From: an uncultured bacterium
GTDB taxonomy: Bacteria > Eisenbacteria > RBG-16-71-46 > CAZAMP01
DNA length: 64,000 bases
Direction of reading: 5' to 3'
Assembly (NCBI GenBank): GCA_964486455.1
Contig: CAZAMP010000018.1
Span: 14,971-78,970 of the forward strand
Shown here one piece after another: positions 12,972 to 57,752 of this stretch (position 1 is its first letter; each line of letters opens with the position of its first letter). Below the pieces are notes generated by a model. It was not told the DNA's origin. It saw only the letters and a program-made list of their open reading frames with translations, and made no database searches. The position numbers and the translations under genes are program-made.

Positions 12972-13220
12972 TGCTGCCGGGGTAGCGCGATCCCGCGGCA
13001 GTACGGGCCTGGGCCACGCGGCTACGTTCTCCGCTTTTCGCCGGACCCGAAAATCCACCGAAAATTGTACCCAGGTACAAACTTAACTCACATTTTAACA
13101 ACAAGTTAAGGGATGGGCGTCGACAGGGGTGTCGGCTTTTTGACACTGCACAAAGCGCCTTGGAGCGACGGCAGGTGCCGCTCTGTCGGGTATCGCCCTA
13201 TCGAGGTCGGCGCCTGTGGA

Positions 13221-15677: not shown

Positions 15678-15930
15678 GCGATTCCTCGGTGATGGCCCTG
15701 CTGGAACAGTAGGCCGTCGCGCCGATCTCCGTCCGCGGTCGTAACGATCATGGACCCCGTGACACACATAATGATAGATCTAACTATCGACCTAAAAGCG
15801 TGCGAAGATTAGCCCAAGCATCCGAGAGATCCAAGCGGGGCTGGCGACCAATGGCATCCCCGTGATATTCAGATGGGCAACTCTACATACGATAACCGGG
15901 AAGCGACCGAGCCAGGAGTAGCGTGAGCGA

Positions 15931-17489: not shown

Positions 17490-18569
17490 CTACCTGAGCA
17501 ACCGCCGCTTGAGCGTCATCGCCTGCCGCATGAGATCCAGCACCGCCTTGCTCACCGGACGGAGTGTCTTCTGCCACGACCCGATCATGTGAACGTAGTC
17601 GCCCGCGAACTCGTGCTTGAACTTCCAGACGGTGAAGTTCGGGTGCTCCGGCTCCGGCTCGGGGCCGGGGCTCCCACCGAAGTTGTAGATTCGCTTCCCC
17701 AGCGAGCGATAGCGGCACATGGCCGTGTAGTGGAGAAACTGACCGGTTTGCGGACAGCCCTTCTCCCGCGCGGCGTCGAGCAGCGCCCCCCAGTGGTAGA
17801 TGGGATTCCCGGTGGCGCCCACGTAGAGATAATTCCGCGGCACGTCGCTGTATCGGGCCACGTAGAGATCGCCCAAACCAGCGCGTGAGAGAGGCAGGAG
17901 CACCTCGCGCGCGAACTCCTCGGGCAGCACTTCGAGCCCCTTGCGGCCGACCATCCCGCGATGGGCTGCGCCGAATGCCTCGTGATCCTCGGGAGAGTCC
18001 GTCCGCTCGACGACGAGCCCTTCTCTGATCGCCTTTCGGATGTGGCGCCGCGGGTTCTTGCCGAACCCCTTGAGCAACTCATCCTCCGAATCGGCGGTGA
18101 GATCGACGAAGTACGTGCCGAGTGGCGAGGCGAAGTCGAAGCCCGCGTTGCGCAACACCGCCTGAAGCGGCTCAGCATACGCGACCGGCGACCCTCCGAT
18201 CTGCCGGGGAATCTGGAGCGAGATCTCGACGACCGACGCGCGCAGCTCGGAAGCGCGTTCGAGGAGCGCCCCGAGAAAGCTCTCGAGGGTCGTCGGATCG
18301 GCCGGATCCGCTAGCGCGATCCCGCCGGACGTGCGAACGAACGGTCCCACGCCCACCCCGGGATCGCGGATGGCGAGAAGCGCGGCGGCCGTGAACGCGA
18401 CGCCGCCTTCACATGCGAGTATCTCCGCGCGGTGGCCGTAGAGATCCAGGGCGCGGGTGTAGAACGACGACTGCCGAACGGTCGAGCTGTCGACCGTCTG
18501 GAGCCATGCGTCCCAATCGTCGTATCGGTCGGGTGACAGAATGGTCATGTTGCTCCCGCTATGGCTCAT
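17490..18569 (-). CDS. FemAB-family protein (aminoacyl-transferase-like GNAT tandem fold)
   Basis: 359 aa with a C-terminal KFKHEFAGDY motif typical of the FemAB family. Last gene of the AsnB-CE4-GT4-FemAB operon. Confidence 0.65.
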   Translation of the reverse strand: MSHSGSNMTILSPDRYDDWDAWLQTVDSSTVRQSSFYTRALDLYGHRAEILACEGGVAFTAAALLAIRDPGVGVGPFVRTSGGIALADPADPTTLESFLGALLERASELRASVVEISLQIPRQIGGSPVAYAEPLQAVLRNAGFDFASPLGTYFVDLTADSEDELLKGFGKNPRRHIRKAIREGLVVERTDSPEDHEAFGAAHRGMVGRKGLEVLPEEFAREVLLPLSRAGLGDLYVARYSDVPRNYLYVGATGNPIYHWGALLDAAREKGCPQTGQFLHYTAMCRYRSLGKRIYNFGGSPGPEPEPEHPNFTVWKFKHEFAGDYVHMIGSWQKTLRPVSKAVLDLMRQAMTLKRRLLR

Positions 18570-19637: not shown

Positions 19638-20633
19638 TTACCCCGTCCCCAGGACGCGGATCAGCATCCGTCCCTGTTCCTCGGAGTTCACGCCGAAACG
19701 GCGCAGCGCGAACGGGTCGCAGTCGGCCCGCACGATACCGCTTTGCGACGTGGTTGCGGTGCGGTAGCCGGCGCGCTCCACCATTGCCCGCACCGCGGCG
19801 TTCTCGTGTTGTCCGCTCCCCGGGTTCGGATAGGAGAAGTGGGTCACGGGACGTCCGATGACCTTCTCGAGGACGGCGCGGCTCTCGATGATCTCACGCT
19901 CGGCCTCGACGAGCGAAACGGCGGTCAGCAGTGGATGTGTGCACGTGTGCGCGCCGATCGTCATTCCGGCGTCGGCCATCTCTCGAAGCTCGTCGGCGGT
20001 CATCATGATTCCGGCATCGTCGGGACGTCCGTTTCCGGACCACGCGACGAGCGCGTCGAGGGCCTCTTCGCGCTCGGGCGCGGAGATCCCGCGAAGCCAC
20101 TGCGTGAGCCGGCGCGTGGACGCGCCCTTCGCCGCCGGGTTCGAGAGATCAACCTCGACGGGTGCCGGACACTCGCCGCGCGGCGAGAACCCGCCGGCGA
20201 AGAGCTGCATCAGCCTCACCGTCCAGACGGCGGGCGCGGGTGAAATGGAGTCCGAAACGATGTAGAACGTCGCCGTCGCCCCATGGCGGCGGAGAATGGG
20301 CAAGGCGTACTGGTAGTTGTCGCGATAGCCGTCGTCGAAGGTGATCACGACCCCGGGGCGCGACCCGGCGGGGCGACCCTTCTCCAGTCGGTCCATCGCG
20401 TCATCCAAGCTGATGATGTCGTAGTGTGACGCGATGCGCTCGATCTGCTCATCGAAGCGCTCGGGATCGAGGCAGATCGTCGTCGAGACGTAGGTCGCCT
20501 CGTCCTGCGGCGCGACGGAGTGGTAGCGCAGGATGATCGTGTTGTGTCGCGAGAAACGGACCTTCGCCACGGCGGACGAGTAGATCATGAACCGCTTCGC
20601 GCGGATCGCGGCCATCCGCATGGGTGATGGCAT
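19638..20633 (-). CDS. Polysaccharide deacetylase (CE4 / NodB homology domain)
   Basis: VITFDDGYRDNYQYALPILRRHGATATFYI (NodB motifs TFDDG and H-x4-H context) and a C-terminal FSYPNPG. Confidence 0.75.
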   Translation of the reverse strand: MPSPMRMAAIRAKRFMIYSSAVAKVRFSRHNTIILRYHSVAPQDEATYVSTTICLDPERFDEQIERIASHYDIISLDDAMDRLEKGRPAGSRPGVVITFDDGYRDNYQYALPILRRHGATATFYIVSDSISPAPAVWTVRLMQLFAGGFSPRGECPAPVEVDLSNPAAKGASTRRLTQWLRGISAPEREEALDALVAWSGNGRPDDAGIMMTADELREMADAGMTIGAHTCTHPLLTAVSLVEAEREIIESRAVLEKVIGRPVTHFSYPNPGSGQHENAAVRAMVERAGYRTATTSQSGIVRADCDPFALRRFGVNSEEQGRMLIRVLGTG

Positions 20634-20636: not shown

Positions 20637-22583
20637 CTAGTGACTCACACTTTCCGCGGTTTGGGGTGACCGGGTCGATCCTGATGTCGGGCCCGATGAG
20701 AAATCCGTTTGCGTGCTCCGCAGAACATCCGTCTTGAACAGAAGCTCCATCGTCAGCACGGTCCAGAGTGCGCGCGCTTCCGCACGCGACAGGCCACCGG
20801 CGTCGGCGAACTCGGACTTGTCGAGGAGCCGCCGGACCCCCCGTCGATCGAAAATGCCACGCTCGGCGCACTCCCGCGATGCGATCACGTCCCGGTACTC
20901 GCCGAGCTTCCTCGGATCCCGGAACCACCGCGCGAGGTCGCCCACAAGCCCCCGATTCGGGATCCATTCGGAACGCGGAATGAAGTGTTCGTAGACACTT
21001 TGCTTCCAGTTCCTCCCGATCCGCTTCCCGTCGGGTCGGTTTGCGAGAAACCCCTGGGCGAACGAGAAAAGTGTAACGTCCTTCAGCGGATAGTCCAGCG
21101 CGAGTCCCAATCGGCGCGCAATGAGGCGCCGGCTGATGAGCGAGCTCGCGAAGAGATGATCATTGAACAGGCACCACCAGCTGTGCCGCTCGGCCAGACG
21201 GTGGCGGCCGACGCCGCGCGCCAGGCCGTCCGTGAAGTGCGGGGCCGGATCGAACGCGGCGCTCCGCCGCCCGAGAAGCGACATCACATTTCGGCCGTTT
21301 CGGAGCGTCCGCTCCGGGCACACCGCGATTCCGGCCAGCTCCTCGGGGCTCAGAGAGAGCAGCCACAGCGGCTCGCGGAGCCGCTTCGGTAGCCACGAGT
21401 GGATCGGGAGAAGCGCCCTGAGGGCGCGAGCGACGAGCGCTCCATGTCGCGACTGACTCGCGCGAATGGCACCGGGGCTGATCGGGGCAAACCCGGAGAT
21501 GGAGCCCGTGCCCATGTCGCCTGTCCAGAGCTGCCCCTCCCGCTGGCCCAGCTCGGAGACCGCGGCCGCCAAGAGCAAATGATTGTAGTACTTGGGTGGA
21601 AAGCCGGTGGCGGCCAGGTACGGCTCCAGGTGGCCCCGGAGATCCAGGTCCTCTTCCATGAACCGTCGGCAGGGGTAGCCGTGCCGGCGAGCGAAGTCGG
21701 CCGCGACGCGCGATTCGTCGAAGCCGGTCCGCTTGCCGATCGTAATCGCCTGGACGTCGGCACCGACCTCCGCGGCGATCGCCATGAGCACGCGGGAATC
21801 CAACCCCCCGCTCGTGAGCAGTGTCACCGCCTGGTTCGGCCTGTAGTTGACCCGAATTCGCACCGCCCGCCGGAGGAGGCCCGTGCCGAGCCGGCGATAG
21901 AGCGGATCGGAAGGGTCCTCGACCGACCCCCCGCGCATCGCGAACTCCGCCAGGTCGATCCGGTGGGGGTGCGTCTCCCCCGGCGCGACGCGGAGCATCT
22001 CATCGCAGTAAAGCCTTCTCACTCCGCGAAAGAGCGTTTGGTCATCCACGGGATTTCGGTTCACGACGTAGTCGACGACACGGCCGGCGTTGATCTCTCG
22101 GCCGAGACCTAGAGCGTCCGAGACGAGCTGTGGGGAGCTGTTCACGACGGCCGTGCCTCCCGCCGTGCCGTAGTAGAGCGTGCGTGAGGAGATCCTATCC
22201 GCGACCACGGTGACCCGAAGCGTCCCCGGAACCAGCTCTTCCCGGCTCACCGGATCGATGCCGGCGACCACGACGGCCACGAAGCGGCCGTTCGCCCGGG
22301 TCAGCTCATCCAGCACGTCGCCGGCGCCGTCACGATGGCCGAGGTGCTCGATGCCGCGGGTGCCAGCCATGTCGGGTGTGAACTCCGAGATCAGCTCGTA
22401 AACATGACCGATGACGACGATTTCCCCGTCGGCGACGGTATAGCGGGCGACCTCGGTTTCGTCGTCCGAAACCCACACGGAGGCGACGCTGGCCTGCCCG
22501 TCCCACCGTCCGACGCAGCGGGCCTTTGCCCCGCTCAAGACGGGGGTATCCTTGTCGGTCCGTGCGTGTACGAGATGGATCAC
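20637..22583 (-). CDS. Asparagine synthetase (AsnB)-family amidotransferase; N-terminal nucleophile Cys apparently absent
   Basis: PP-loop LTSGGLDSRVL is present. The glutaminase-like N-domain is present but starts MIHLVH... and no in-frame Cys2 is available upstream (a stop lies 8 codons upstream). Confidence 0.8.
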   Translation of the reverse strand: MIHLVHARTDKDTPVLSGAKARCVGRWDGQASVASVWVSDDETEVARYTVADGEIVVIGHVYELISEFTPDMAGTRGIEHLGHRDGAGDVLDELTRANGRFVAVVVAGIDPVSREELVPGTLRVTVVADRISSRTLYYGTAGGTAVVNSSPQLVSDALGLGREINAGRVVDYVVNRNPVDDQTLFRGVRRLYCDEMLRVAPGETHPHRIDLAEFAMRGGSVEDPSDPLYRRLGTGLLRRAVRIRVNYRPNQAVTLLTSGGLDSRVLMAIAAEVGADVQAITIGKRTGFDESRVAADFARRHGYPCRRFMEEDLDLRGHLEPYLAATGFPPKYYNHLLLAAAVSELGQREGQLWTGDMGTGSISGFAPISPGAIRASQSRHGALVARALRALLPIHSWLPKRLREPLWLLSLSPEELAGIAVCPERTLRNGRNVMSLLGRRSAAFDPAPHFTDGLARGVGRHRLAERHSWWCLFNDHLFASSLISRRLIARRLGLALDYPLKDVTLFSFAQGFLANRPDGKRIGRNWKQSVYEHFIPRSEWIPNRGLVGDLARWFRDPRKLGEYRDVIASRECAERGIFDRRGVRRLLDKSEFADAGGLSRAEARALWTVLTMELLFKTDVLRSTQTDFSSGPTSGSTRSPQTAESVSH

Positions 22584-22676: not shown

Positions 22677-23882
22677 ATGAGAATCCTCTATATCGTCCAG
22701 TACTACAGCCGTCCCGACGAGCCCGGGGGCAGCCGGCCCTACCAGTTCGCCAAACACTGGACCGCAGCGGGACATGACGTGGAGATCATCACCGGCGCGG
22801 TGAACCACAAGACCGGAAAAGTCCACGAATCTGTCAGCGGTCGGCTGTCCGCGCCCGTACGGGAGGACGGCTTCACGGTGCGTCGCGTGCGGTCGTATCA
22901 CGCCTACAAAGGCAGCATGAACAAACGCTACGTCTCGTTTCTCTCCTACGCCCTGTCCGCCACGCTGATGGCCCCGCGCCGGCCGCGACCCGACGTGATC
23001 TTCGCGTCCTCGACACCGCTCACGACCGGGGCCGCGGGCGTGGTGCTCTCGAAGCTCACTGGGCTGCCGCTCGTGTTCGAGGCGCGCGACCTCTGGCCGA
23101 AAGCGGTCGTCGTCGCCGGGGTCATCGGAACGGGTTGGAAGCTCCGGGCCGCCGAAAAGATGGAGTCGTGGATCTACGACAATGCCGAGCACGTAGTGGT
23201 CGTCTCGCAAGGCGATCGGTTGGAATTGATCGAGCGTGGGCTCGACGCCGAACACGTTCACTGGGTGCCGAACGGCGTCGATGACTGGATGCTCCGGACC
23301 GATCCCCCGCCCGCGCCTGAACGAACGGGCCCGTTCGAGGTCTACTACGTCGGCGCCCACGGCAAGTGGAATCATCTCGATCGACTGCTCGACCTCGCCT
23401 CACGATGCGACGGCTCGATACGGTTCAGCCTCATCGGCGACGGCGATGTGAAGCCCGCGCTGATGGAGCGCGCCCGCCGCGACGGTCTCGCCAACGTGCG
23501 CTTCTTGGACCCGATGCCGAAGGAGCAGGCCTTCCGCGCGCTCGAGTCGGCGCATGCCACGATCGTCGTCTGCGGCACGCACGAGCACTACGAACAGTGG
23601 CTCCCCAACAAAGTTTTCGACTATCTCGCGGCGGGACGACCGATCTTCGTGCTCGGCACGGGCGAGCTGGCGCGGCTCATCGACGACGGCCGCTGTGGCC
23701 TCACGGCTCCGGCGACCGACCTCGACGGTGGGGCGGCGGCTCTCGGAACGCTGGCCGCGAGCGACAGGGCGACCCTGGACGCCATGGGGCGCGCGTCACG
23801 TTTGATCGCGGGTGACCGGTTCGCGAGGAGCATGCTGGCGGATCGGATGATCAACATCTTCGAAAACGCCCGAAGGCAATGA
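22677..23882 (+). CDS. GT4 glycosyltransferase (WcaI/WbuB-like)
   Basis: Start trimmed to MRILYIVQYYSRPDEPGGSRPYQF; the upstream 114 codons overlap the AsnB gene antisense. C-terminal GT-B domain. An alternative start is at 22632. Confidence 0.7.
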   Translation: MRILYIVQYYSRPDEPGGSRPYQFAKHWTAAGHDVEIITGAVNHKTGKVHESVSGRLSAPVREDGFTVRRVRSYHAYKGSMNKRYVSFLSYALSATLMAPRRPRPDVIFASSTPLTTGAAGVVLSKLTGLPLVFEARDLWPKAVVVAGVIGTGWKLRAAEKMESWIYDNAEHVVVVSQGDRLELIERGLDAEHVHWVPNGVDDWMLRTDPPPAPERTGPFEVYYVGAHGKWNHLDRLLDLASRCDGSIRFSLIGDGDVKPALMERARRDGLANVRFLDPMPKEQAFRALESAHATIVVCGTHEHYEQWLPNKVFDYLAAGRPIFVLGTGELARLIDDGRCGLTAPATDLDGGAAALGTLAASDRATLDAMGRASRLIAGDRFARSMLADRMINIFENARRQ

Positions 23883-26278
23883 AGCCGAAGTCCACCGCCC
23901 ATCTCGCGTTCTTCCCGGTGCTCCTCCTTGCGCTCCTTGCGTCCGCCGCCTTCGCTGGTCCTTCACAGGCGGCGCCGTCGCTGGACGATCTCCCACCCCA
24001 CCCGCGCCTCTTCCTGACTCAACCTGAGCTTGCGGCGCTGCGCGCGGATTGCCTGGGCGGTTCCAAGCGAGACCTCTACGGCATGATCCGGCGCTACGCC
24101 GAGCGAAAGCTCCCCAGGAAAGGCCCGACGGACAACCCCGTCCAGGTGTCCGTCTTCGCCTTCGTCTACCTCATCGAAGAGGACATGCGCTTCGGCAAAG
24201 AGGCCGTCCTGGGACTCATGCGCGTAGTTCGGCAGAAGAAGTGGTACGCGAAGCAGGAAGGCTACCAGTTCATGCCGATGGTCTACGACCACATCTACCC
24301 ACTTCTCACGCGCGCTCAGATCGATTCGGTGATCAGAGTGGCGCGGCTCAGGGTCAAGCCCGGACACTACGCGAAGTCGCCCTACTACAACCTCGAGGCG
24401 AACGCCGCGGCGAGCTGCGTCGTCAACGGCATCACGTTCTTCGGCGACGGAGACGCGTCATCGGACCGCCACTTCCGGGAGACGTTCGTCAACGGCTTCA
24501 ACAGATTGGCCGGCGAGGGAACGCATCACCCCGACACCGGAAGCGCCGAGCTTCGCGGCGGCGTGCTCCGCACGCGCCTCCACTACGCGCGCGACGGTGG
24601 CTACCACAAGGACCGCGCATACACGTGCAAGGATCTCGCGAGCCTGGTTCACTTCGCCGAGGCGATGCGCGCTCTGGGACTCTTCGACGCGTACGCGTTC
24701 GCGCGTGACTACTACGTCAACGTCGTCGACTACCTGCTCTGGATCACACGGCCCGACGGCACCGGGCTTCGCCAAACCACGGGACAGGGGCACCGGAGGC
24801 TCACGCCGCGCGGCTACGAGGCGCTCGCCGGGATCGGGCGTCAGTTCCGCCTGGGCAAAACCGCGTGGATGATCGATAACCGGTTGCTCGGAGACGGCGT
24901 CCCGCCCGCCTACGAGGCGGTTCTCTTCTGCATCCTCTGGGATCCGATGCTCGCTCCGGAGCCCCCCACGGTCGAGTCGATGGGAACGAGCAAAGCATTC
25001 AACGGCGGCGCGGCGCGATACGTCTATCGATCGGGATGGGACGTATCACCCGAGAGCCGGGACTTCGTCTTTCACATCGATGCGTCCGACTACATGGGTG
25101 ACAACGTCTACTGGACCGTCGGCGGGTTCGAGATCTTCTATCGCGGCGCGCTTGCCATCAAGTCCGGCAACTACGCCGCGTTCGACGATCACTACGGCCA
25201 CTACAACACGGCGACCATCTCCGCGAACTGCGTGATCGTCCGTGACGACGGGCAGAAGGAGATCCGAGATCGCAGCGGGCAGGACAACATCAGAAAGAGC
25301 ATCGGGCGGCCGGAGAAGCTCGGCGACGTTGCCGAGGGGAGTGTGCTCGATCGCGCGCGGATCGACTCCGTACGCACTCGCGTCGCGGGCGGACGCGAGT
25401 GGAGCCTGGTCTCGGTCACGCTTCGGCCGAAAGCGATCTACGTCAAGACAAAGAAGGCGGAAAGCTGGATCCGGCGCGTGCTCGTCACCGACGGCATCGC
25501 GGTGATCTACGATCGCGTGAAGGCCCGCGACGCGGACTTCCCGATCAGCTGGCTTCTGCACACCGTCGAGGAACCGGTCGTGAGCGGAGCGATATCGGAC
25601 GTGGACGTGCCGGGGCATATCAGCTGGCACGCGGGAGACACGTTTCATGTCACGCGCTCGATGCCGATCGAAAGCTCACCGAACGGAGGGAACCTTCACG
25701 GGACGAGGCTTCTGCCGCGGCATGCGCGGACACGCAAGGTGGGAGGCGACGGCTATTCGTTCTGGGTGGACAGCGCGCACCCCGTTCCCGGCGCTCAGCC
25801 GATGGGGCGGAACTTCGAAATCGGGCGGCCGGAAGTACGCTACAGCCGGCGCGAGGCGGGCGCCTGGCGGCTCGAGATCCACCCCATCGAGCCCGGGCCG
25901 GCGCAGGAGTTCCTCGTCGCGCTGCAGGCGAGCGACGAGGAGTATGGCGATACCTTCCAGCTCGTGCTGGACGCGGAAACCGCCGGCTTCGTGCACGACG
26001 GCGTGATGCTCGGGTTCTCGCGTACCGACCCTCCGCCGGAAAGACCTTCTTATCGACTGCACGGCGACGCGGAGCTGATCCTGCTGTTCGATTTGGCGCC
26101 GAGGACGGCGTACCGCATGGAGATCATCGACGAGAGCGACTCGACGGGGATGATGGTGAAGGGTCTCGCGAATCTGATGGAGCTACGAAGCGATGACCGG
26201 GGATGCGCAGTCGGCGAGATTCAGTTGCCGGCTGGAACTCGGTTCCGGCTGGATCCGCTCAAGGACGCTCTGCCGTAA
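23879..26278 (+). CDS. Secreted heparinase II/III-like family protein (second copy)
   Basis: Signal peptide (LAFFPVLLLALLASAAFAGPSQA). Central region SDYMGDNVYWTVGGFEIFYRGALAIKSGNY...DDHYGHYNTATISANCVIV resembles the heparinase II/III C-domain motif. 4-nt overlap with the upstream GT4. Confidence 0.6.
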   Translation: MKPKSTAHLAFFPVLLLALLASAAFAGPSQAAPSLDDLPPHPRLFLTQPELAALRADCLGGSKRDLYGMIRRYAERKLPRKGPTDNPVQVSVFAFVYLIEEDMRFGKEAVLGLMRVVRQKKWYAKQEGYQFMPMVYDHIYPLLTRAQIDSVIRVARLRVKPGHYAKSPYYNLEANAAASCVVNGITFFGDGDASSDRHFRETFVNGFNRLAGEGTHHPDTGSAELRGGVLRTRLHYARDGGYHKDRAYTCKDLASLVHFAEAMRALGLFDAYAFARDYYVNVVDYLLWITRPDGTGLRQTTGQGHRRLTPRGYEALAGIGRQFRLGKTAWMIDNRLLGDGVPPAYEAVLFCILWDPMLAPEPPTVESMGTSKAFNGGAARYVYRSGWDVSPESRDFVFHIDASDYMGDNVYWTVGGFEIFYRGALAIKSGNYAAFDDHYGHYNTATISANCVIVRDDGQKEIRDRSGQDNIRKSIGRPEKLGDVAEGSVLDRARIDSVRTRVAGGREWSLVSVTLRPKAIYVKTKKAESWIRRVLVTDGIAVIYDRVKARDADFPISWLLHTVEEPVVSGAISDVDVPGHISWHAGDTFHVTRSMPIESSPNGGNLHGTRLLPRHARTRKVGGDGYSFWVDSAHPVPGAQPMGRNFEIGRPEVRYSRREAGAWRLEIHPIEPGPAQEFLVALQASDEEYGDTFQLVLDAETAGFVHDGVMLGFSRTDPPPERPSYRLHGDAELILLFDLAPRTAYRMEIIDESDSTGMMVKGLANLMELRSDDRGCAVGEIQLPAGTRFRLDPLKDALP

Positions 26279-28259
26279 GGCCGGCGTCTTCCCAAGTGAA
26301 ACGGTAGATGCTCGTCGCTCCGTCGGGCGATACGAAATCGGCGGGACGATCGGACAGCAGCGACTGAAGCGACGGGTCCATCTTCTCGCTTTCACTCTTG
26401 AGGTGAGATCCCTTGGCAAACACCCAGACCACCGGCCACTTCTCGCAGTATGCCAGGAAATCGTCCAGCGTCGGGATCAACTCGGCGCTCAGGTAGATAT
26501 CTCGGATCGTGCCGAGCGAATCCACGTAGGCCTGACGGCCCCACCCCCGCCAACGTGTCCATGCATCGACCCGCTCCAGATAAGCGTAGGTCATGAGCCA
26601 GTCCGTCGCCACAACCCTATCACCGGGTTCCAACCGCGGCCGCAGCCATTCCACGGCGCTCTCGATGTCCCACGCCACCCGCGTGCCGGGGGTCCACCAG
26701 TCCTCACCGGTCTCACGAGTCACGTAGGCCGTCGACTTCTGCAGAACCCCACCCATGAGAAACGCGATAGCGGCGAGCGCGGTCACGGCGATCGGCATGG
26801 GCGCGGTCCGAGGCCCGCCCCGCGAAACGAGCTGGTTGAGCCAGTCGAGACCCCGCACGACCGACCAGCCGGCGAGAAGCCCCCAAAGCGGCCAGATCTC
26901 GACGAGAAACCGGGCCTGCGTCTTCCACGTGAGAAGCCCGCGGGTCAAGAGCAGGAGGATCACCGCCAGTAGAAGAAAGCGCTCTCCAAACGTTGCGTTC
27001 CCCCGCCAGGCGCGAACGGTGATCGCCACCGCACCCGCGCAGGCCGCGATGCCGACCGGCAGCGCATCGAGGAGGTAGCTGAGGTAGCGTGCCGGCCAAC
27101 GCAGGATGATCTCGACGGAATCACGGAGTCCACAACCCATGGACTTGGCGGCGACAACCCAGACGATCCCCGCGATCATGACGGTGACGAGCCCGATCGC
27201 AAGCGCCCGTGATCCCGTCGGGCCCGGAAAGAGTTCGTCCTTGTGAAGAATCAGGATCACCATGGCGGCGACGGCCACGCCCACTTGATGCACTCCGGCG
27301 GCCGCGAGTGCGAACGCGAGGCCGAGCATGCCGAGAAGTCGAGTGAGCCACGGCCGCCCGCGGGTCGCCGAGATGGCCACGACGGCGAACACAACGGCGA
27401 AGACGACGCCCAGCGCGTAAGGGCCGATGTCCCCGATCAGCATCGTCGACAGCGCCCACGGATCCTGGGAGAGCGTATCCTGAATCGGCTGAGAGGCGAC
27501 CTTCTCGGCAATGTCGGGAACCGGTTCCACCGCATTCTCATGGCCGCCCATGAACGCGCTCCGGTTCCAGGCCTGGTGCCACTTGGCGACGGCGATCAAC
27601 ACCGTCGCCGACACCAATACGGAAAGGCGCATGCGCCATGATGACCACCGAACGAGTACCGGGATGAAAAGCACGCATAATGTCCCGCCTAGCTGGTGCG
27701 CCCCCATCGACAGTAGGACCAATGCAGAGGCTATCCAGAGATCGCGGTGCTTCCCCGATTCCCAGAGCCGATACACCGCGAACATCGCCAACATCGCGAG
27801 AAGTGAGTAGAGCGAGTACATGCGGACGTATCGCCCAAGCATGACCTCTTCCCACACAACGGCGAAGATCACCGCGCCCGCGACAGCGCTCCACGCTCCA
27901 ACCCATGGCCGACCGAGTCGGAGCACCGCCACCCCACCGAGCACCGAGAAAAAGATCGACACGAGACGCGGCAGCCAGTCCGTATGCGTGGCCGCGAGCG
28001 GCGCGATCACATAGTGATAGAGCGGGGCCCGGAGGTAGAGATGACCGGAGGGGAGCTGGGGCTCTCCGGTCTCGGCGATCCCACGCGCGACGATCGTGCT
28101 GATATCCTCGTCACCGTGAAGTCCCTGCCGATCCAGGAAAGGCAGACGGAAGAGCAGCATCAGGAGGATCACCGCCAGGAGGATCCCCCATCCCATTCGC
28201 GTGGTTGGAGCGGTCACACTGCTCATTCGGCTTCCTTGTTCACCCGCCGGACCTGCCAA
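26259..28259 (-). CDS. GT-C family glycosyltransferase (ArnT/PMT-like, polyprenyl-phosphate-sugar dependent) with C-terminal periplasmic domain
   Basis: 666 aa with more than 10 TM helices. First periplasmic loop LHGDEDISTIVARGIAETG carries the DE/DD motif of GT39/GT83. Overlaps the upstream CE4 gene by 20 nt. Confidence 0.6.
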   Translation of the reverse strand: MAGPAGEQGSRMSSVTAPTTRMGWGILLAVILLMLLFRLPFLDRQGLHGDEDISTIVARGIAETGEPQLPSGHLYLRAPLYHYVIAPLAATHTDWLPRLVSIFFSVLGGVAVLRLGRPWVGAWSAVAGAVIFAVVWEEVMLGRYVRMYSLYSLLAMLAMFAVYRLWESGKHRDLWIASALVLLSMGAHQLGGTLCVLFIPVLVRWSSWRMRLSVLVSATVLIAVAKWHQAWNRSAFMGGHENAVEPVPDIAEKVASQPIQDTLSQDPWALSTMLIGDIGPYALGVVFAVVFAVVAISATRGRPWLTRLLGMLGLAFALAAAGVHQVGVAVAAMVILILHKDELFPGPTGSRALAIGLVTVMIAGIVWVVAAKSMGCGLRDSVEIILRWPARYLSYLLDALPVGIAACAGAVAITVRAWRGNATFGERFLLLAVILLLLTRGLLTWKTQARFLVEIWPLWGLLAGWSVVRGLDWLNQLVSRGGPRTAPMPIAVTALAAIAFLMGGVLQKSTAYVTRETGEDWWTPGTRVAWDIESAVEWLRPRLEPGDRVVATDWLMTYAYLERVDAWTRWRGWGRQAYVDSLGTIRDIYLSAELIPTLDDFLAYCEKWPVVWVFAKGSHLKSESEKMDPSLQSLLSDRPADFVSPDGATSIYRFTWEDAGLTAERP

Positions 28260-29280
28260 ACCTCAAGTTTCGTAACAGCAGGACGTCAAAAACCCCCAGC
28301 AACTCCGCTTCGAAGAGCGTCCAGGAGAAGTCCCTTCCCGTCAGTGAGTACTTCGGCTCACTGACCCCGATTCTTGGGATTCGAAATGGATCCGAGCGCA
28401 ATGAATAGTAGCCTTTCTCCGTCGTGAAAGCGTAAGTGAATCCGGCGCCTCGGACCCGATCCACGATTCGATCGTCGTGGCTCCCATTGGGATAGGCGAA
28501 GAGCTCGAGCCCACTCCCCAGTCGCTCGGACAGATCGTTTCGGCATCCGTCGATCTCGCCTTCCAGCTCGGCACCGGTGCAGTGGGTCAGAATGGCGTGG
28601 GCGCGGCCGTGACCGGCGAATTCCGCCCCTTCGCCGAGCATGGCGCGGGCCTGGTCGAACGTCATGGCCTGGGGAACCTCGTGAGGGTCGATCCGCGCCG
28701 CCGCCGTGACGATCAGCTCCCGTACCTCATCGCGAAGCGCGGAGTACGGCAGCCCCTTCAGCCGAGCGATGGCCGACTCCGCCGCATGCCCGTACGTGGC
28801 CTCCCCTACGCCACTGACCGGATAGGCCGAGCCACCTTCCGGGCGGTGAGTGGCGGCCACGATCTCCCACCAGAGCGGGGAGATCCCGGCGACGAATTCC
28901 GTGGTGAGGCAAAATATGGCCGTGGCGCCGACCTCACGAAGAATGGGCCAGGCGTTGACGGCATTGTCGAGATAGCCATCGTCGAACGTGATGGCCATAT
29001 GCGGGCGGGGGTCGCCGCGCCGGGCGGCCGACACGCAATCCTCCCACGGGGCGACTCGGTATCGCCGGGTGACCTCCGCGACCAGCTTCGCGAATAGCTC
29101 GGTCGGCACGCCCATCGGAACGCGGGCGTCCGGATCGCCGTCGACCCGATGCAGCCAGAGAACGGGAATCTGCCCTCGCCGCGCGCGATGACGCCTGAGC
29201 CAGCGCAATATGCCGGTGGCACGGAGAACGGCGGCAATGATCCATTTGACCAGCTGCACCGCTCTCTGGAAGCTTCCCAT
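28240..29280 (-). CDS. Polysaccharide deacetylase (CE4 / NodB domain)
   Basis: ITFDDGYLDNAVNAWPILREVGATAIFCL and FAYPNGSHDDRIV motifs. Confidence 0.7.
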   Translation of the reverse strand: MGSFQRAVQLVKWIIAAVLRATGILRWLRRHRARRGQIPVLWLHRVDGDPDARVPMGVPTELFAKLVAEVTRRYRVAPWEDCVSAARRGDPRPHMAITFDDGYLDNAVNAWPILREVGATAIFCLTTEFVAGISPLWWEIVAATHRPEGGSAYPVSGVGEATYGHAAESAIARLKGLPYSALRDEVRELIVTAAARIDPHEVPQAMTFDQARAMLGEGAEFAGHGRAHAILTHCTGAELEGEIDGCRNDLSERLGSGLELFAYPNGSHDDRIVDRVRGAGFTYAFTTEKGYYSLRSDPFRIPRIGVSEPKYSLTGRDFSWTLFEAELLGVFDVLLLRNLRFGRSGG

Positions 29281-29521
29281 CAGATCTCCTGCTCTGCGCG
29301 GGTCCCCCGCAGATACTCCCGTATGGCCGAGTTCTTAGCAGAACGCGGTCCAATAGGAAAGCCCGGGGGCCCAGGCTCGGCTCTCGGGCCACGAAAGCGC
29401 GATTCCCCGCCTCCTTCCCGCTTGTCGGCCCCTGGAAACGCAAGTAGACTTTCCCGGCCTTTCTACAGACAGGATCGGGTGCCGGAGGCCCCGTGGGGAC
29501 AGCAATCGGAGGTGTGGTGAT

Positions 29522-30497
29522 GTCGAAGAGGGAGATGAGAAACATCCTGGTGACGGGTGCCGTCGGCCAGATCGGATCGGAGCTGACGCTGGCACTCCGG
29601 GAACGCTATGGCTCGGAAAATGTTGTGGCGACTGGGAGAAAGACGGATCCCACCCCCGATCTCCGCGACTCCGGACCGTTCTACTTCATCGACGTGACGC
29701 AGCGCGCTTCGCTCGACGTCGTGATCAAGAAGCACAACATCGACACGATCTACCACATGGCGGCCGTCCTCTCCGCGACCGGCGAAAAGAACCCACCGCT
29801 CTGCTGGGACGTGAACATGAACGGCACGCTCAATGTGCTGGAAGCGGCGCGCGATTACGAGATGGCGCGCGTGATCATGCCGTCGTCGATCGCCGTCTTC
29901 GGACCGCTCTCGCCCCGCGACAACACGCCGCAAGACACGATCCTCTGTCCCTCCACGATGTACGGCGTGACGAAGGTCGCGGGCGAAGTGCTCTGCAACT
30001 ACTACGTGCAGCGATTCGGCGTGGATATCCGCGGGCTTCGCTACCCGGGCATTATCTCGAGCGAAACACTGCCGGGCGGCGGAACGACCGACTACGCGGT
30101 GGCCATCTACTACGACGCGGTCAAGCACAACAAATACACCTGCTTCGTTCGCGAAGACACGGTGCTCCCGATGATGTACATGCCCGACTGCATCAAGGCG
30201 ACGATCGATCTCGCCGAGGCGGAGTTCGACACGCTCAAGCACCATGCTGATTTCAACGTCGGCGCGTTCAGCTTCTCCGTGGGCGAACTCGCCGCGAGCA
30301 TCGCGAAGTATATGCCTGGCTTCACGTGTACCTACGAGCCGGACTTCCGGCAGGCGATCGCGGATTCGTGGCCGAGGTCTCTGGATGACAGCGCCGCCCG
30401 CGAGGAGTGGGGTTGGAAGCCGGGCTACGACCTCGATGCGATGACGAAGGATATGCTGGAGAAGCTCAAGGCGAGGCACGAGAAGGGCGAGCTGTAG
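29522..30497 (+). CDS. NAD-dependent epimerase/dehydratase-family SDR, L-threonine 3-dehydrogenase-like
   Basis: ILVTGAVGQIGSEL Rossmann motif and YGVTK (YxxxK) catalytic motif, with overall collinearity to short-type TDH. Start trimmed to MSKREMRN (the ORF is called from 29493). Confidence 0.7.
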
Positions 30498-30594
30498 GCA
30501 ACCTGCGCCGGAACGCGAGCCGCGCGGACGGCCGAACCACACCGGCCGCCCCGCCGCTTCCGGCGGAGCCGAACCCCATAGGGCCTCTCGTACG

Positions 30595-31356
30595 ATGAAG
30601 CAGAAGCTGATCATCGTTCCCGCGTACAACGAGGCCGCCAACATCGTTGGCGTAATCGCCGATCTGCGTGAGCACTGTCCGGGTTTCGACATCGTCGTGA
30701 TCAACGACCACTCCACGGACGGCACGGCCGCAGCCGCGTTGGCGGCCGGCGTGGAGCTTCTCGACCTCCCGGTCAATCTCGGGATCGGCGGCGCTGTTCA
30801 GACCGGCTTCCGCTACGCCTGGCGGCACGGCTACGACCTCGTCGTTCGTGTGGACGGCGACGGCCAACATCGCGCTGATCAGATCCCGTCGCTCATCGCG
30901 CCTATCCTCAACGGCAACGCCGATTGCGTTAACGGCTCGCGCTTTCTGAACCGGGACGGACGCGCCGACTGGCCACGCGCGCGACGGGCGGGGACGATGG
31001 TCTTCTCCGTTCTGAGCAAGCTGCTGCTCAGGAAACGGATCACCGACGCCACTTCCGGGTTTCGCGCGTACTCCCGCCGTGTCATCAGACACCTGGCTGA
31101 GCACTATCCCGAGGACTATCCCGAACCGGAGATCGTGAATCGGCTCGTGCAGCTCGGCATGCGGCTCGAGGAAGTGCCGGTCACGATGCGCAAGCGTGGC
31201 GGCGGAACGTCGTCGATCACGTTCCTCAAATCGATCTACTACATGGTCAAGGTCGTGATGGCCGTCCTGATCAATACGCCGGTCTTTCCGTCGCGGAAGA
31301 GATCGCCGGGGACGCCAGAAAGCTCCCCCGGAACATCCACGAGGAGCGAACCGTGA
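30595..31356 (+). CDS. GT2 glycosyltransferase, polyprenyl-phosphate sugar synthase-like (DPM1/ArnC/GtrB-type)
   Basis: LIIVPAYNEAANI and VVINDHSTDGT motifs, plus VDGDGQH (DxD region). Confidence 0.75.
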   Translation: MKQKLIIVPAYNEAANIVGVIADLREHCPGFDIVVINDHSTDGTAAAALAAGVELLDLPVNLGIGGAVQTGFRYAWRHGYDLVVRVDGDGQHRADQIPSLIAPILNGNADCVNGSRFLNRDGRADWPRARRAGTMVFSVLSKLLLRKRITDATSGFRAYSRRVIRHLAEHYPEDYPEPEIVNRLVQLGMRLEEVPVTMRKRGGGTSSITFLKSIYYMVKVVMAVLINTPVFPSRKRSPGTPESSPGTSTRSEP

Positions 31357-31769
31357 CGCGATTCCAGATCATCGCGTTCTTCGCCGGATTAGCCTTTCTT
31401 CTCGTGATCGTGCAGCTGATCCGCCGGCATCATCTCAAGGAGAAGTACAGTCTGATCTGGTTTCTCGCGGCGCTTCTGTTGATCGTGTTCGCCGTGTGGA
31501 GAAGCCTGGTCGAGATACTCGCGAATCTCTTCGGCATCGACTACGCGCCTGCGGTGTTGTTGCTGTTGCTCGTCTTCATTGGGGCCGGGTTCTTCCTGGC
31601 GTTCTCGGTCATCGCGACGAAGCTCTCGAACCGGAGCCGGCGGCTCGCCCAGGAGGTCGCGTTGCTCAAGAATGAGCTGGCGGCGATGGAGGGTCGCGCC
31701 GGCGGCGCGAGCGACCGGCGGAACGACGAATCCGGCGGTGCAACGGACCAACCGGCAGATTCATCGTAG
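31353..31769 (+). CDS. DUF2304-like small membrane protein (GT2 partner)
   Basis: Three TM helices and translationally coupled (4-nt overlap) to the GT2. This family commonly accompanies GT2 polyprenyl-P-glycosyltransferases. Confidence 0.5.
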   Translation: MTRFQIIAFFAGLAFLLVIVQLIRRHHLKEKYSLIWFLAALLLIVFAVWRSLVEILANLFGIDYAPAVLLLLLVFIGAGFFLAFSVIATKLSNRSRRLAQEVALLKNELAAMEGRAGGASDRRNDESGGATDQPADSS

Positions 31770-32218: not shown

Positions 32219-32425
32219 CCGCGGCCGGAGACGGCCGTCGGACGCCCCGTGCAGAGCGATGGTGGCCGCGATAGGTTGACGATTTTTCGCAAGTCGGTAT
32301 AGAATCTATTGACAGTAGATCCCCCTCATCGACCGATCGCCGGTGAGCCGGAACGCCTCGGCTTTGGTGTAACCGGTTACGTAACAACGGATTGCTTGTC
32401 TGCGCCCCGCAACTTCGGAGGGAAA

Positions 32426-34147
32426 ATGTCAGCTTGCCGATATGCTGCCGCACCACGGCCGACCGCCGGGGTGACCGTGACACTATTTATTGTCACCCTT
32501 GCAGTCGCCTTGAGTGGCGTGACGCCCGCCGCCGCCGTAACTAAAGCTCCCCCAAAGAGTTTCACCGAATCGGTCGCCGATCTGTCGACGGTCGCCCGGA
32601 CTGCAATGCCACCTGTCGACGAGGCGGCGCTCGTCGAGGAGGACGAGGACCGCTACGCCACCGGCTGGGACGGCCCGTTTCGCTTCGCCGCTCCCCACTT
32701 CGTGAACATCGACTTCCTGACCGAGGCCACGCCGGAGTTGGTGAACGACGGCGGGACGATGTGGCGGCTCCGCGTCGTCTCGGAGGGCGCGCGCACGATC
32801 AATATCGGCATCGCCGGGTTCGAGCTCCCGGTCGGCGCGACGTTTCACATGTATCCCAGCGATCTCCACACGTACGTGGGTCCGTTCGGGTCGGCGGATC
32901 ACATCGCGGAGCGCGAGTTCTGGAGCCCGGTGATTCCCGGCGATCAGATCGTCTTGGAGCTCTACGTGCCGGCCGACGCCGCGTTCACGCCGACCCTCGA
33001 GATCATTCAGGTCAACCACGACTACATCGGGTTCGGTGACATCGACTCGGACCCGGACGGGCACATGATGCAGGGCTGGTGCAACAACGACGTCGTCTGT
33101 CCCGAAGGCGATCCCTGGCGCGACGAGATCCGCTCGGAAGGTGTGTACACGATCAACGGGAGTTGGATGTGTTCGGGTCAGATGCTGAACAGCGTTGCGG
33201 AGACACCGCCTCCCTACTTTCTGACGGCGGATCACTGCGGCATCAGCGGCGGCAATGATCACGCGGTTCGGATCTACTGGAACTTCGAGTCGCCGGACTG
33301 CGGCGATCTCTGCTGCGGAAGCCTCAGCGACAGCCAGCAGGGAACGATCTTCCGCGCGGACTACTCGACGTCGGACTTCTGCCTCGTCGAGCTCTCGCAG
33401 GATCCCGACCCCGACTTCGACGTCTACTACTCGGGCTGGGACGCCCGCGAAGAGAACGCGCCGCAGAGATGCACCGCCATTCATCATCCGAACACGGACG
33501 AGAAGGCGATCAGCTTCAACTACGACCCGATCACCGTCACGAGCTACTTGAGCAACAGCGTTCCCGGAAACGGTTCGCACTGGCGCGTGGACGATTGGGA
33601 AGACGGCACGACCGAGCCGGGTTCGTCCGGGTCGGGGATCTGGGACGAGAACCACCATCTCGTCGGACAGCTCCATGGCGGGTATGCCTCTTGCTCGTCG
33701 ATCACGTCGGACTGGTACGGACGCTTCTCGGTGTCGTGGGACGACGGAAGCAACCAGAGCTCGCGGCTCAGAGATTGGCTCGATCCCGACAACACCGGTA
33801 CGCGGGTGCTCGACGGTCGCGATCCGGATGACCCGCTTGCGGTGGACGGCGATCAGGCGGTCCCTGGTGCGGCGACGCTGCTCGCGGTCAATCCGAATCC
33901 ATTCAGTCGGTCGACGGAGATCCGGTTCGAGCTCACGTCGGCGGGCAATGTTGCCGTCACGATCCACGACGTCGCGGGGCGGATCGTGTCGTCGGTTCCG
34001 GCCAAGTCATACGGCGCCGGCGAGTCGCGCGTAAGCTGGGATGGAAACGATGCGAACGGCATGCCGCTGCCGGCGGGCGTCTACTTCGTCCGGCTGGCCG
34101 TTGGCGAGCGATCGGTAGGAACGACCAAGATCGTCATGATGCGGTAG
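32426..34147 (+). CDS. Secreted S1-family (trypsin/lysyl-endopeptidase-like) serine peptidase with C-terminal T9SS/FlgD-Ig-like sorting domain
   Basis: Start trimmed to MSACRYAAA... (preceded by GGAGGGAAA) with a signal peptide. LTADHC (His) and EPGSSGSGIWD (GxSGS Ser) motifs. C-terminal approximately 80 aa NPNPFSRSTEIRFEL...GVYFVRL. Confidence 0.6.
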   Translation: MSACRYAAAPRPTAGVTVTLFIVTLAVALSGVTPAAAVTKAPPKSFTESVADLSTVARTAMPPVDEAALVEEDEDRYATGWDGPFRFAAPHFVNIDFLTEATPELVNDGGTMWRLRVVSEGARTINIGIAGFELPVGATFHMYPSDLHTYVGPFGSADHIAEREFWSPVIPGDQIVLELYVPADAAFTPTLEIIQVNHDYIGFGDIDSDPDGHMMQGWCNNDVVCPEGDPWRDEIRSEGVYTINGSWMCSGQMLNSVAETPPPYFLTADHCGISGGNDHAVRIYWNFESPDCGDLCCGSLSDSQQGTIFRADYSTSDFCLVELSQDPDPDFDVYYSGWDAREENAPQRCTAIHHPNTDEKAISFNYDPITVTSYLSNSVPGNGSHWRVDDWEDGTTEPGSSGSGIWDENHHLVGQLHGGYASCSSITSDWYGRFSVSWDDGSNQSSRLRDWLDPDNTGTRVLDGRDPDDPLAVDGDQAVPGAATLLAVNPNPFSRSTEIRFELTSAGNVAVTIHDVAGRIVSSVPAKSYGAGESRVSWDGNDANGMPLPAGVYFVRLAVGERSVGTTKIVMMR

Positions 34148-34227: not shown

Positions 34228-35133
34228 CTAGGCGATCATCTCCGCGCTCTCGTGCGCACGCGCAATGCGGTTCTCGTTGAGCCCCACCCAGAACGCGTTG
34301 ACGCCGTCGAGCATGTCGCGACCGCCGCGCATGAACTTCTCCTCGTCGAAGCCTTCGGTGAAGAACGCCTCCTCCAGCTCGTCCATGACGTGGAGCTTGT
34401 GATTCTCTTCCACCTTGTCGTGCCAGGTGAAGAACGCGAGCGGGAGATCGGACTGCTCGCGCTTCTTGAAGATCTCGAGACCGCGGACGAGCTCCTTCCA
34501 GAAACCCGCCGCCGCCCACGTCTCGACCGCGAAGCTTGCGCCCTCGGCGATGTTCGGATCTGCCGAGCCGTAGATCCGCGCGAGCTCGTCGCAGAAGAAG
34601 AGCGTCGACGGCGTGCCGTGACGCCGCTTGCCCATCTCTTCGAACTCGAGATCGAGAACTCGGCCCATTCGGGAGAGCCACTCGAAGTGCGCGGCCTTGA
34701 ACTTGAACATTCCGCCATCGACGGTTCCCTCGGTGGATACGAGATCGGGATCGCCTTCACGGTCCGGATCGGTGACGCCCTGCGGCCGGCCATTGCCGCC
34801 CTTCTTGTTGTAGATCACACCCAGCTCGTTGAGGAGAATCTCCTTCGACGCGCGCATGCCTTCGAGTGTGGTCGCGTTGATGGTCTTCTGAAGCTGCGCG
34901 ATGAGAAAGAGATTCGAGAAGACCGAGAACTGCACGATGAAATGCCGGAGGTCTTCGCGCCCGTACTCCCCCTTCTCGAACCAGCGCGTGTAGGCGTTGT
35001 CCGTGATCACGGGATGCGGCATCAGCTCCTGGTTGATACGCTCGACGAAGCTGCTAAATCGGTCGAACTGGTCTTGCGTGATCTCGCCGGACGTCTTGCG
35101 GGCCATCATGTCGTCGGATACGGCCAATCGCAT
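34228..35133 (-). CDS. Haem-oxygenase-like fold, iron-containing redox enzyme family protein (TenA/PqqC/CADD-like), hypothetical
   Basis: Start trimmed to MRLAVSDD (AAGGAG RBS immediately upstream; the upstream ORF part lies in AT-rich non-coding DNA). All-helical protein with E/H-containing motifs. Family assignment is tentative. Confidence 0.4.
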   Translation of the reverse strand: MRLAVSDDMMARKTSGEITQDQFDRFSSFVERINQELMPHPVITDNAYTRWFEKGEYGREDLRHFIVQFSVFSNLFLIAQLQKTINATTLEGMRASKEILLNELGVIYNKKGGNGRPQGVTDPDREGDPDLVSTEGTVDGGMFKFKAAHFEWLSRMGRVLDLEFEEMGKRRHGTPSTLFFCDELARIYGSADPNIAEGASFAVETWAAAGFWKELVRGLEIFKKREQSDLPLAFFTWHDKVEENHKLHVMDELEEAFFTEGFDEEKFMRGGRDMLDGVNAFWVGLNENRIARAHESAEMIA

Positions 35134-35436
35134 ACGATTCTCCTTGTCTGTGCGTCTACGGAAATGGCGCGGTGGTGATTGCGTGCGTGGTAGTGAATTA
35201 TGATAAAAATTACAGGAGAATCGCTCGAAAAACAAATCAGAAAGCGCTCACGACAGCTCGAGCGGGCGCGGCTCATCGCTTCCGTCTTCGTGCGCGCTCA
35301 GATGCTAATGCGATCATCTACTGGTTTTCTCGTAGCGCGGACTCACGCACGCTACACGTCGAGTCTTCGTCCCACACGCAGAACACGCTTCCCGTCGTGA
35401 CGAACGCCGTCATATCGACGGAGACAGGTTCACGCA

Positions 35437-36065: not shown

Positions 36066-36365
36066 GTGACTTCGAACCTTGCTTGGCCCGCGCGGCGGTC
36101 GATGCCAGCCGCCAGGCCGTCATCCTCCGATCGTCCCCGACGGACCCTTCGGAGTTCCAGTGGACTATAGAGAAGTGAGCACGTGAGATAAAAGATTACG
36201 TTGCCGATTCAGTTAATACCTGAATCAGGAACTCAGGAACGTGTTTACCATCAGTACGTTGCCCAAGAGCGCCGTCTAATCTATAATTATACTTACAGTT
36301 CATGTGATGCTGGCACGCATACACCGCAGTTCCTCACATCCTGGATGTGTAGAAGGAGCCCACTC

Positions 36366-39617: not shown

Positions 39618-39627
39618 GGCACTTCTC

Positions 39628-41754: not shown

Positions 41755-41998
41755 GGTGCGTCCCTCCTTTGCCCTCTCATGATCGTGAGGCCATCCGACA
41801 GACGTCTGATGCGCCCTCACGCCAATGGAGTCGCGAAAGAGGGGGGAATCGTTTACAGAGGACAGAACTAACTGCGGGACAAAAGGATAGGCCTCCTGAT
41901 CGGGAGGCCTATCGCTCATGATCGGCGCGGTCGTGGCCGCTGTTTGTGACGGATCCCGCCAGGCCGAAGCGCCGAAGATACGTTCGTCGAATCCGGGG

Positions 41999-45685: not shown

Positions 45686-45875
45686 CCGAACAAGGACGGA
45701 ACGGACCGGCCACGCCCCGATCACGGGGCTTCAGGCCCAGATCGTCATGGCGCATACCGCCCCCCTCGGATTACTATTTGCCGATCTGACTAGCTCTCTC
45801 ATACGGGTCGGTCCGGTAGCGCCGGCCGCGACGCACGCCCGGGCGGCCCCTTCGACATCACGGAAGGAGTCGTTC

Positions 45876-57742: not shown

Positions 57743-57752
57743 CGTCCGACCT

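Follow-up and report, generated by a model that had tools for sequence, protein, structure and literature searches.

A candidate extracytoplasmic glycan-decoration module at the edge of an exopolysaccharide locus in an uncultured bacterium near Eisenbacteria

Genes of the region and the GT2–DUF2304 pair

We analyzed a 64-kb stretch of contig CAZAMP010000018.1 (hereafter the window, with positions counted from its first letter) from an uncultured bacterium most closely related to metagenome-assembled genomes (MAGs) of Eisenbacteria. An exopolysaccharide (EPS) locus of ~29 kb extends from position 1 to ~29.3 kb. The genes at and just beyond its edge encode a membrane glycosyltransferase of the GT-C fold, a de-N-acetylase of family CE4, an L-threonine 3-dehydrogenase (TDH) of the short-chain dehydrogenase/reductase (SDR) type, and a family-GT2 glycosyltransferase with a small DUF2304 protein. 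TM denotes transmembrane. The five genes are as follows.

26259–28226 (open reading frame extending to 28259), minus strand: GT-C-fold integral membrane glycosyltransferase, PMT_2/ArnT-like, assigned by fold, family profile and D-E motif
28240–29280, minus strand: CE4 (NodB) de-N-acetylase, 346 aa, directly upstream of the GT-C gene; PF01522 (Polysacc_deac_1), E = 3.1e-17
29520–30497, plus strand: SDR-type TDH, 325 aa, between the CE4 and GT2 genes and divergent from CE4 across a 240-nt spacer
30595–31356, plus strand: GT2 polyprenyl-phosphate glycosyltransferase of the short GacI/PpgS type, 253 aa; PF00535 (Glycos_transf_2), E = 1.3e-26
31353–31769, plus strand: small DUF2304 membrane protein, 138 aa, 3–4 TM segments; PF10066, E = 3.4e-23

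A preliminary description of this DNA had listed four reading frames, 26259–28259 and 28240–29280 on the minus strand and 30595–31356 and 31353–31769 on the plus strand. All four were recovered, and its assignments to the GT2, DUF2304 and CE4 families agree with the Pfam matches given above. It had also pictured the two halves as facing each other directly, thereby overlooking the TDH gene between them.

The stop codon of the GT2 gene and the start codon of the DUF2304 gene share the letters GTGA, a 4-nt overlap, and the sequence GAGGAG is located 6 nt upstream. The translational coupling proposed earlier is thus real. Among the NCBIfam models, GT2 scored best with PpgS (113.7 bits), followed by AglJ (93 bits), the dolichyl-phosphate (Dol-P)-hexose transferase (78 bits), PgfS, and ArnC. 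All of the best models describe polyprenyl- or dolichyl-phosphate glycosyltransferases, and none was matched at the equivalog cut-off. A PpgS orthologue (NF058614) was ruled out, as the curated cut-off of this model is 370 bits. The nearest relatives in the Protein Data Bank (PDB) were the Dol-P-mannose synthase of Pyrococcus (DPMS, 5mlz, E = 5.8e-12) and ArnC. The sequence DGDGQH aligned with the metal/donor motif DADLQH (DxDxQH), and the GSR and SGF elements were conserved. GT2 has no TM helices and contains only a single amphipathic or hydrophobic helix. These matches support the view that GT2 is a polyprenyl-phosphate glycosyltransferase, as already suspected, and the predicted synthase of a polyprenyl-phosphate-sugar donor; a lack of polyprenyl-phosphate features, which would have contradicted this view, was not observed.

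GacJ and Rv3632, the respective stimulators of GacI and PpgS, are both DUF2304 proteins, and fusions of GT2 with DUF2304 are known. The window shows the same arrangement as the GacI–GacJ and PpgS–Rv3632 pairs, namely a short, TM-less GT2 directly before a DUF2304 protein. Both characterized DUF2304-partnered enzymes use an N-acetylhexosamine (HexNAc), which is GlcNAc for GacI and GalNAc for PpgS. By analogy, the donor sugar in the window is therefore probably a HexNAc as well. The GT2 family comprises more than 7600 homologues at E ≤ 1e-20 from many phyla. The best 120 were ~50–65% identical to the window protein, and one homologue (P0286) is fused to DUF2304. The same pair occurs in two further loci (L020 and L021), and an Acidobacteria genome carries a gacIJKL-like row consisting of GT2, DUF2304, a second GT2, Wzx, and a 621-aa protein with weak PMT_2 similarity. 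In the window, the pair is flanked by the TDH gene and a HIT gene in the order TDH–GT2–DUF2304–HIT. A perfect 6-bp GC hairpin (CCGCCG-CTTC-CGGCGG, 30551–30566, plus strand) is located in the 97 nt that separate the TDH stop codon from the start of GT2. It is not followed by a T-run and is thus not a canonical terminator.

A UDP-GlcNAc 4-epimerase encoded upstream of GT2 would complete a PpgS-like pathway. This identity of the SDR gene was refuted, as its product scored 433 bits (E = 7.7e-129) with TDHs of the PDB versus 66 bits with the best UDP-glucose 4-epimerase. TDH probably does not belong to the glycosylation module. An orthologue with 84% identity is located upstream of GT2–DUF2304 in L020 (9017–9994). 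In distant relatives, the adjacency of the TDH and CE4 orthologues is kept, with TDH (8847–9809) beside a row of CE4, DUF4301 and a 902-aa protein in L022, and a row of CE4, DUF4301 and TDH (12720–13694) in L023. A 2-amino-3-ketobutyrate ligase, the partner of TDH, was not seen at these loci.

The GT-C protein, the CE4 deacetylase and their neighbours

Three start codons are available for the GT-C gene: TTG 28259 (666 aa), ATG 28226, and ATG 28196, the call of the Joint Genome Institute (JGI; 645 aa). ATG 28226 is preceded by the Shine–Dalgarno sequence AAGGAAG, lies 13 nt past the CE4 stop codon, and is the probable start. The proposed overlap of the 3′ end of the CE4 gene with the GT-C gene therefore holds only for TTG 28259, whereas the better start leaves a 13-nt gap. 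The two genes form one operon whichever start is used.

The hydropathy profile of the GT-C protein revealed ~13 TM or hydrophobic segments; its C-terminal part forms an alpha/beta domain of ~135 aa. Given a cytoplasmic N-terminus and ~13 segments, this domain would be located outside the membrane. A GDEDIS motif follows immediately after TM1. The family alignment comprised 45 members, down to ~20% identity, and is numbered from ATG 28226. In the DE motif, D39 was invariant and E40 almost so. Other kept residues were Y64, R66, R87, R132, R135, Y137, H177, and R439 and, in the C-terminal domain, residues including D520, Y549, D554, D576, Y578, and W601. The GT-C fold of the protein is accompanied by an acidic motif in the first loop outside the membrane, as in the three-component glycosylation paradigm described in PMC11127046.

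In the Pfam scan, the window protein reached 19.8 bits with PMT_2, under the gathering cut-off of 26.1 bits. PMT_2 matched six of eight close family members (best E = 5e-9) and was the only Pfam match; neither PMT (PF02366) nor MIR domains were found in the GT-C protein. Of the NCBIfam models, those of ArnT and PMT gave no match, and only Agl23 was hit (E = 3e-5). Searches against the PDB with the single sequence gave no match, and an 8-sequence profile produced matches at chance level only. With the 45-sequence profile, ArnT was the only meaningful match (E = 0.0017), covering the YxR/YFEK region entering TM2. Foldseek returned oligosaccharyltransferases (OSTs) as the best structural matches, followed by ArnT, and no Wzy or WaaL types occurred among the fold and profile matches. 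The translated protein lacks the WWDYG-type motif of OSTs (STT3/PglB/AglB), and its conserved C-terminal residues read ATDW and GRVDxW instead. Judged by sequence, the GT-C protein is a distant relative, not a member, of the PMT_2/ArnT sequence families (GT39/GT83), and its C-terminal domain is unrelated to the luminal domains of PMTs. The fold and the family evidence, with a single-sequence score below threshold, support a PMT/ArnT-like protein and not one of the Wzy/WaaL type. On this point the preliminary description, which had assigned the 666-aa protein to PMT/ArnT-like GT-C enzymes with a DE motif, was right; no grouping with O-antigen ligases or polymerases was found.

A word-indexed search found ~8 close homologues of the GT-C protein. 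An exhaustive profile search widened the set to 3775 relatives with E < 1e-3. At E < 1e-30 there were 237 clusters, which align over the full length, C-terminal domain included. A few relatives, from MAGs of Eisenbacteria, Latescibacterota and Acidobacteriota, are annotated as "GT39 family" or "ArnT-like", and most of the clusters at E < 1e-30 are unnamed.

The AlphaFold model of the CE4 protein had a pLDDT of 92.6, with N-terminal helices confidently modelled beside the domain. Within the CE4 family, TFDD 98–101, H224, H228, AYPNG and R303 are invariant, and H44 is nearly invariant. The protein contains the permuted NodB fold and the set of His, Asp, Asp-His-His and distal Arg residues of the PgaB/IcaB/PplD subclass. 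According to the model, it belongs to this structural subclass, with PplD as the structurally closest member, and appears to be active. Residues 7–25 are weakly hydrophobic (Kyte–Doolittle value of 1.62) and are followed by RRHRARR. As the hydropathy profile revealed no convincing signal peptide, CE4 is probably cytoplasmic.

To place the GT-C gene in context, we compared nine loci carrying GT-C orthologues, six of which had annotated flanks; a profile scan of genome contigs yielded six loci, mostly short. Where flanks were annotated (6/9), the orthologues were found amid polysaccharide-synthesis genes (Wzz, Wzy, Wzx, GT4, CE4, AsnB-like). Five of the loci are given here in gene order.

L005: carbamoyltransferase, CE4, GT-C, AsnB-like, MBOAT
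L006: CE4 (14-nt overlap), GT-C, UDP-glucose dehydrogenase
L008: Wzz, further genes, two GT2, GT-C, CE4, further genes, Wzy_C, GT4s
L010: AsnB-like, two GT2, GT-C
L012: CE4 (divergent), GT-C overlapping Wzx by 4 nt, CE4, FemAB-like

The paired GT2s of L008 and L010 are of the ArnC/GtrB type with C-terminal TM helices. They matched the full-length ArnC model with 177–190 and 97–101 bits, and the second gene of each pair overlaps the GT-C start codon. This overlap is the strongest argument for polyprenyl-monophosphate sugars as the donors of the GT-C family. In the second GT2 (8941–9906 in L008, 9012–10004 in L010), TDRFQA replaces DGDLQN and LDGP replaces DDGS. With these replacements, the second GT2 is probably unable to bind metal or donor, and it may be an inactive partner subunit with a role like that of DUF2304 for the short GT2.

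The CE4 gene adjoins the GT-C gene in five of the nine loci, but the CE4s beside other GT-C orthologues are paralogues of the window protein (35–132 bits). Its orthologues, with 47–57% identity, are located in L022, L023 and L024. In the first two, CE4 is accompanied by DUF4301, a homologue of a 902-aa protein of the window and TDH, without GT-C and without GT2–DUF2304; in L024 it stands alone. The earlier inference from the CE4 neighbourhood, that the donor is N-deacetylated as in the case of aminoarabinose, was not supported by this comparison: the CE4 orthologues in these three loci have no GT-C neighbour, synteny with TDH is found instead in L022 and L023, and the window locus contains a second CE4 paralogue. 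The adjacency recurs in CE4-rich loci and hence provides no evidence for sugar deacetylation on the lipid carrier. A function of CE4 as an ArnD analogue acting on a lipid-linked monosaccharide was rejected as the leading reading on the basis of the fold ranking and of these orthologues.

Proposed decoration system and competing explanations

We propose, with a probability of roughly 55%, that this region, at the edge of the EPS locus, supplies two components of a three-part system for extracytoplasmic glycan decoration, in which the synthase and its DUF2304 partner feed a periplasmic GT-C that decorates a polysaccharide. The short GT2 would move a sugar, most likely a HexNAc, from a nucleotide sugar to polyprenyl phosphate at the cytoplasmic face of the membrane, and binding of the DUF2304 protein would raise its activity. 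A further protein would then flip the lipid-linked monosaccharide. In the periplasm, GT-C would take the flipped donor and attach individual side-chain sugars to a polymer, which is most likely the EPS that the adjacent genes produce. For this, it would rely on the conserved arginines and on the D-E motif of the first loop outside the membrane, and its C-terminal domain may bind the acceptor, which is probably the EPS. CE4, as a GlcNAc/HexNAc de-N-acetylase, would more probably tailor the glycan or the lipid-linked repeat unit than the monosaccharide donor. Of the donor-synthase and transferase pairing in the preliminary description, the family identities and the coupling in L008 and L010 uphold the core; the deacetylated donor is not supported, and the TDH gene separates the two halves.

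Four known systems share parts of this scheme. In Streptococcus pyogenes, GacI/GacJ/GacK/GacL attach the GlcNAc side chain of the group A carbohydrate. Here, too, a short, TM-less GT2 is followed by a DUF2304 protein, and a GT-C enzyme uses a lipid-phosphate-sugar to decorate a polysaccharide outside the membrane; PplD, the closest structural match of the window CE4, is the de-N-acetylase of the same streptococcal polysaccharide. The window differs in that no Wzx-type flippase adjoins the pair and the genes are split into two divergent or separated units. Furthermore, its GT-C appears to belong to a different, uncharacterized sequence family, the TM anchor and linker of PplD are missing from its CE4, and the host is an uncultured bacterium near Eisenbacteria MAGs.

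The second system, PpgS (Rv3631)/Rv3632/Rv3779 of Mycobacterium tuberculosis, places galactosamine (GalN) on arabinogalactan. It comprises the best NCBIfam match of the window GT2, a DUF2304 protein (Rv3632), and a GT-C transferring the sugar to a wall polysaccharide. This mycobacterial pathway requires a deacetylase and a flippase, both still unidentified. In contrast to this system, the window GT2 is not a PpgS orthologue, and the upstream SDR is a TDH and not a UDP-GlcNAc 4-epimerase like Rv3634c. The ArnC/ArnD/ArnE-F/ArnT system, which modifies lipid A with aminoarabinose, follows a common logic of polyprenyl-phosphate GT2, NodB-fold amidase and GT-C transferase. Of the solved proteins, the GT-C profile finds ArnT alone, and the GT-C orthologues of L008 and L010 are coupled to ArnC-like GT2s. 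However, the window has a short, TM-less GT2, lacks ArnA/ArnB and ArnE/F genes, and provides an EPS rather than a lipid A context. The GtrA/GtrB/Gtr* systems of O-antigen glycosylation and related systems (GT136) share the mechanism and combine a lipid-phosphate-sugar synthase with a GT-C bearing an extracytoplasmic domain after TM1 (PMC11127046). Unlike these, the window has no GtrA or MATE flippase nearby, and in place of the two C-terminal TM helices found in GtrB, its synthase has a DUF2304 partner.

The closest relative, whose GT-C is 45% identical, carries CE4–GT-C–AsnB-like and TDH–GT2–DUF2304 on one 21.5-kb contig, where both flank EPS genes; the identities are 84% for TDH, 65% for GT2 and 70% for DUF2304. 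In both the window and this relative, the pair thus borders the GT-C-bearing EPS locus, which speaks for the proposed system. In the window, GT2 and GT-C are 2.3 kb apart. Several observations weigh against a joint function. The TDH gene between the two halves looks like a housekeeping gene, and in the closest relative ~13.5 kb separate the two units. A polyprenyl-phosphate GT2 is present on the same contig in only four of the nine GT-C loci, and the size of the GT2–DUF2304 family, which covers many phyla, implies that the pair could work for a different acceptor system. Between positions 26 and 32 kb, no dedicated flippase of the GtrA, SMR, MATE, Wzx or any other type is encoded; in relatives, a Wzx gene is found beside GT-C or GT2 (L012, L021). 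Foldseek places the OSTs above ArnT, which leaves room for a polyprenyl-diphosphate-oligosaccharide donor. Finally, the GT-C family contains no biochemically characterized member.

The proximity of the two halves could be coincidental, with TDH–GT2–DUF2304–HIT as an independent unit serving another envelope glycosylation and GT-C being fed by a different synthase. We regard this as unlikely. It would account for the flanking TDH and HIT genes, for the conserved TDH–GT2–DUF2304 order at a distance from GT-C in the closest relative, for the ubiquity and strong conservation of the GT2 family, and for the five of nine GT-C loci with no polyprenyl-phosphate GT2 in view. However, no second GT-C candidate was found among the long reading frames of the window that the pair could serve, the pair borders the same GT-C-bearing EPS locus in both genomes, and GT-C orthologues in L008 and L010 are directly coupled to polyprenyl-phosphate GT2 genes.

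Considerably less probable still is an OST-, ligase- or polymerase-like GT-C that passes a Wzx-flipped, polyprenyl-diphosphate-linked repeat unit of the EPS on to a growing chain, an anchor or a protein, instead of transferring a single sugar from a monophosphate donor. The presence of Wzx together with the lack of a recognizable Wzy in the window would fit such a function, as would the GT-C/Wzx overlap in L012. However, the missing Wzy may be located in the ~15 kb of contig beyond window position 1, and L008 has its own Wzy_C and Wzz near GT-C. By sequence, the family profile finds ArnT and not the OSTs, PMT_2 is the sole Pfam match, the WWDYG-type motif is absent, and the GT-C orthologues are coupled to synthases of monophosphate sugars resembling ArnC. 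Just as improbable is a bacterial PMT-like protein O-glycosyltransferase that uses the polyprenyl-phosphate-sugar to modify secreted proteins such as FlgD_ig/Por-tail proteases, two of which, with sorting domains, are encoded nearby (32309–34147 and 36201–38396), given the polysaccharide-synthesis context of the orthologues, the lack of PMT and MIR domains, and a C-terminal domain unlike those of PMTs.

The proposed decoration system would extend the GacIJL and PpgS–Rv3632–Rv3779 style of decoration to an uncultured lineage near Eisenbacteria MAGs. The GT-C family is moderately large and mostly missed by current domain libraries, and its invariant residues are clear candidates for mutagenesis. 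Its description helps annotation and the prediction of side-chain chemistry of EPS in metagenomes, and it leaves the understanding of such systems unchanged. A bolder reading, which we consider doubtful, is that the ~237 clusters at E < 1e-30, with a C-terminal domain of their own, form an uncharacterized family decorating EPS with an amino sugar in Eisenbacteria and neighbouring lineages, recurrently with PplD/PgaB-like CE4s that convert the transferred or lipid-linked HexNAc to hexosamine. If true, it would add a new CAZy family and suggest a candidate enzyme type for the missing deacetylase of the mycobacterial GalN pathway.

The wider EPS locus and the remainder of the window

In addition to several GT4s and the CE4 gene described above, the stretch occupied by the EPS locus contains the following genes.

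590–1702, minus strand: 370-aa reading frame, partial match to the pectate lyase PelZ only (NCBIfam, E = 5.7e-18)
1743–2906, 11448–12971, 15931–17469 and 17490–18569: four Acetyltransf_6/FemAB-like genes
2980–4428: Wzx-type flippase gene, the sole one found in the window, 22 kb from the GT-C/GT2 region
7618–10326, plus strand: 902-aa protein, marginal match to HepB (heparin/heparan-sulfate lyase) only (E = 4.6e-4), a weaker likeness than that of the 799-aa protein below
13221–14216: GDSL-like protein, found together with MBOAT
14253–15767: MBOAT
19638–20633: second CE4 paralogue
20637–22583: AsnB-like amidotransferase
23879–26278, plus strand: 799-aa secreted heparinase-II/III-like protein with signal peptide, partial HepB match (E = 7e-18)

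The four FemAB-like genes, together with the AsnB-like, MBOAT and GDSL-like genes, suggest that the polysaccharide is heavily acylated, amidated or aminoacylated. The GT-C gene and the gene of the 799-aa protein are convergent, and their 3′ ends overlap by 20 nt. Homologues of the 902-aa protein accompany the CE4 orthologue in L022 and L023. Hydropathy and domain scans revealed no Wzy-like polytopic protein within the 64-kb window, and a scan of the region for promoters and terminators gave background levels only. Beyond the GT2–DUF2304 pair, the window contains the following genes.

32309–34147 and 36201–38396, plus strand: secreted proteases, one trypsin-like (lysyl-endopeptidase-like) and one subtilase, with C-terminal FlgD_ig/Por_Secre_tail domains
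34228–35235, minus strand: 335-aa reading frame, no Pfam match
38517–41919 (minus), 45747–48665 (plus), 48918–50750 (minus) and 55538–57883 (minus): unrelated genes, encoding VWA/VIT-domain proteins, an M16 peptidase pair-domain protein, a UbiD-family decarboxylase, a P-type ATPase, and ABC-2 permeases
62037–63446: sulfatase, likewise among the unrelated genes

The sorting domains of the two proteases, a signal of the type IX secretion system kind, fit an organism of the FCB group or one resembling Eisenbacteria. The window corresponds to the JGI metagenome contig Ga0118727_1000820 (80.7 kb), and its gene order recurs on four near-identical contigs.

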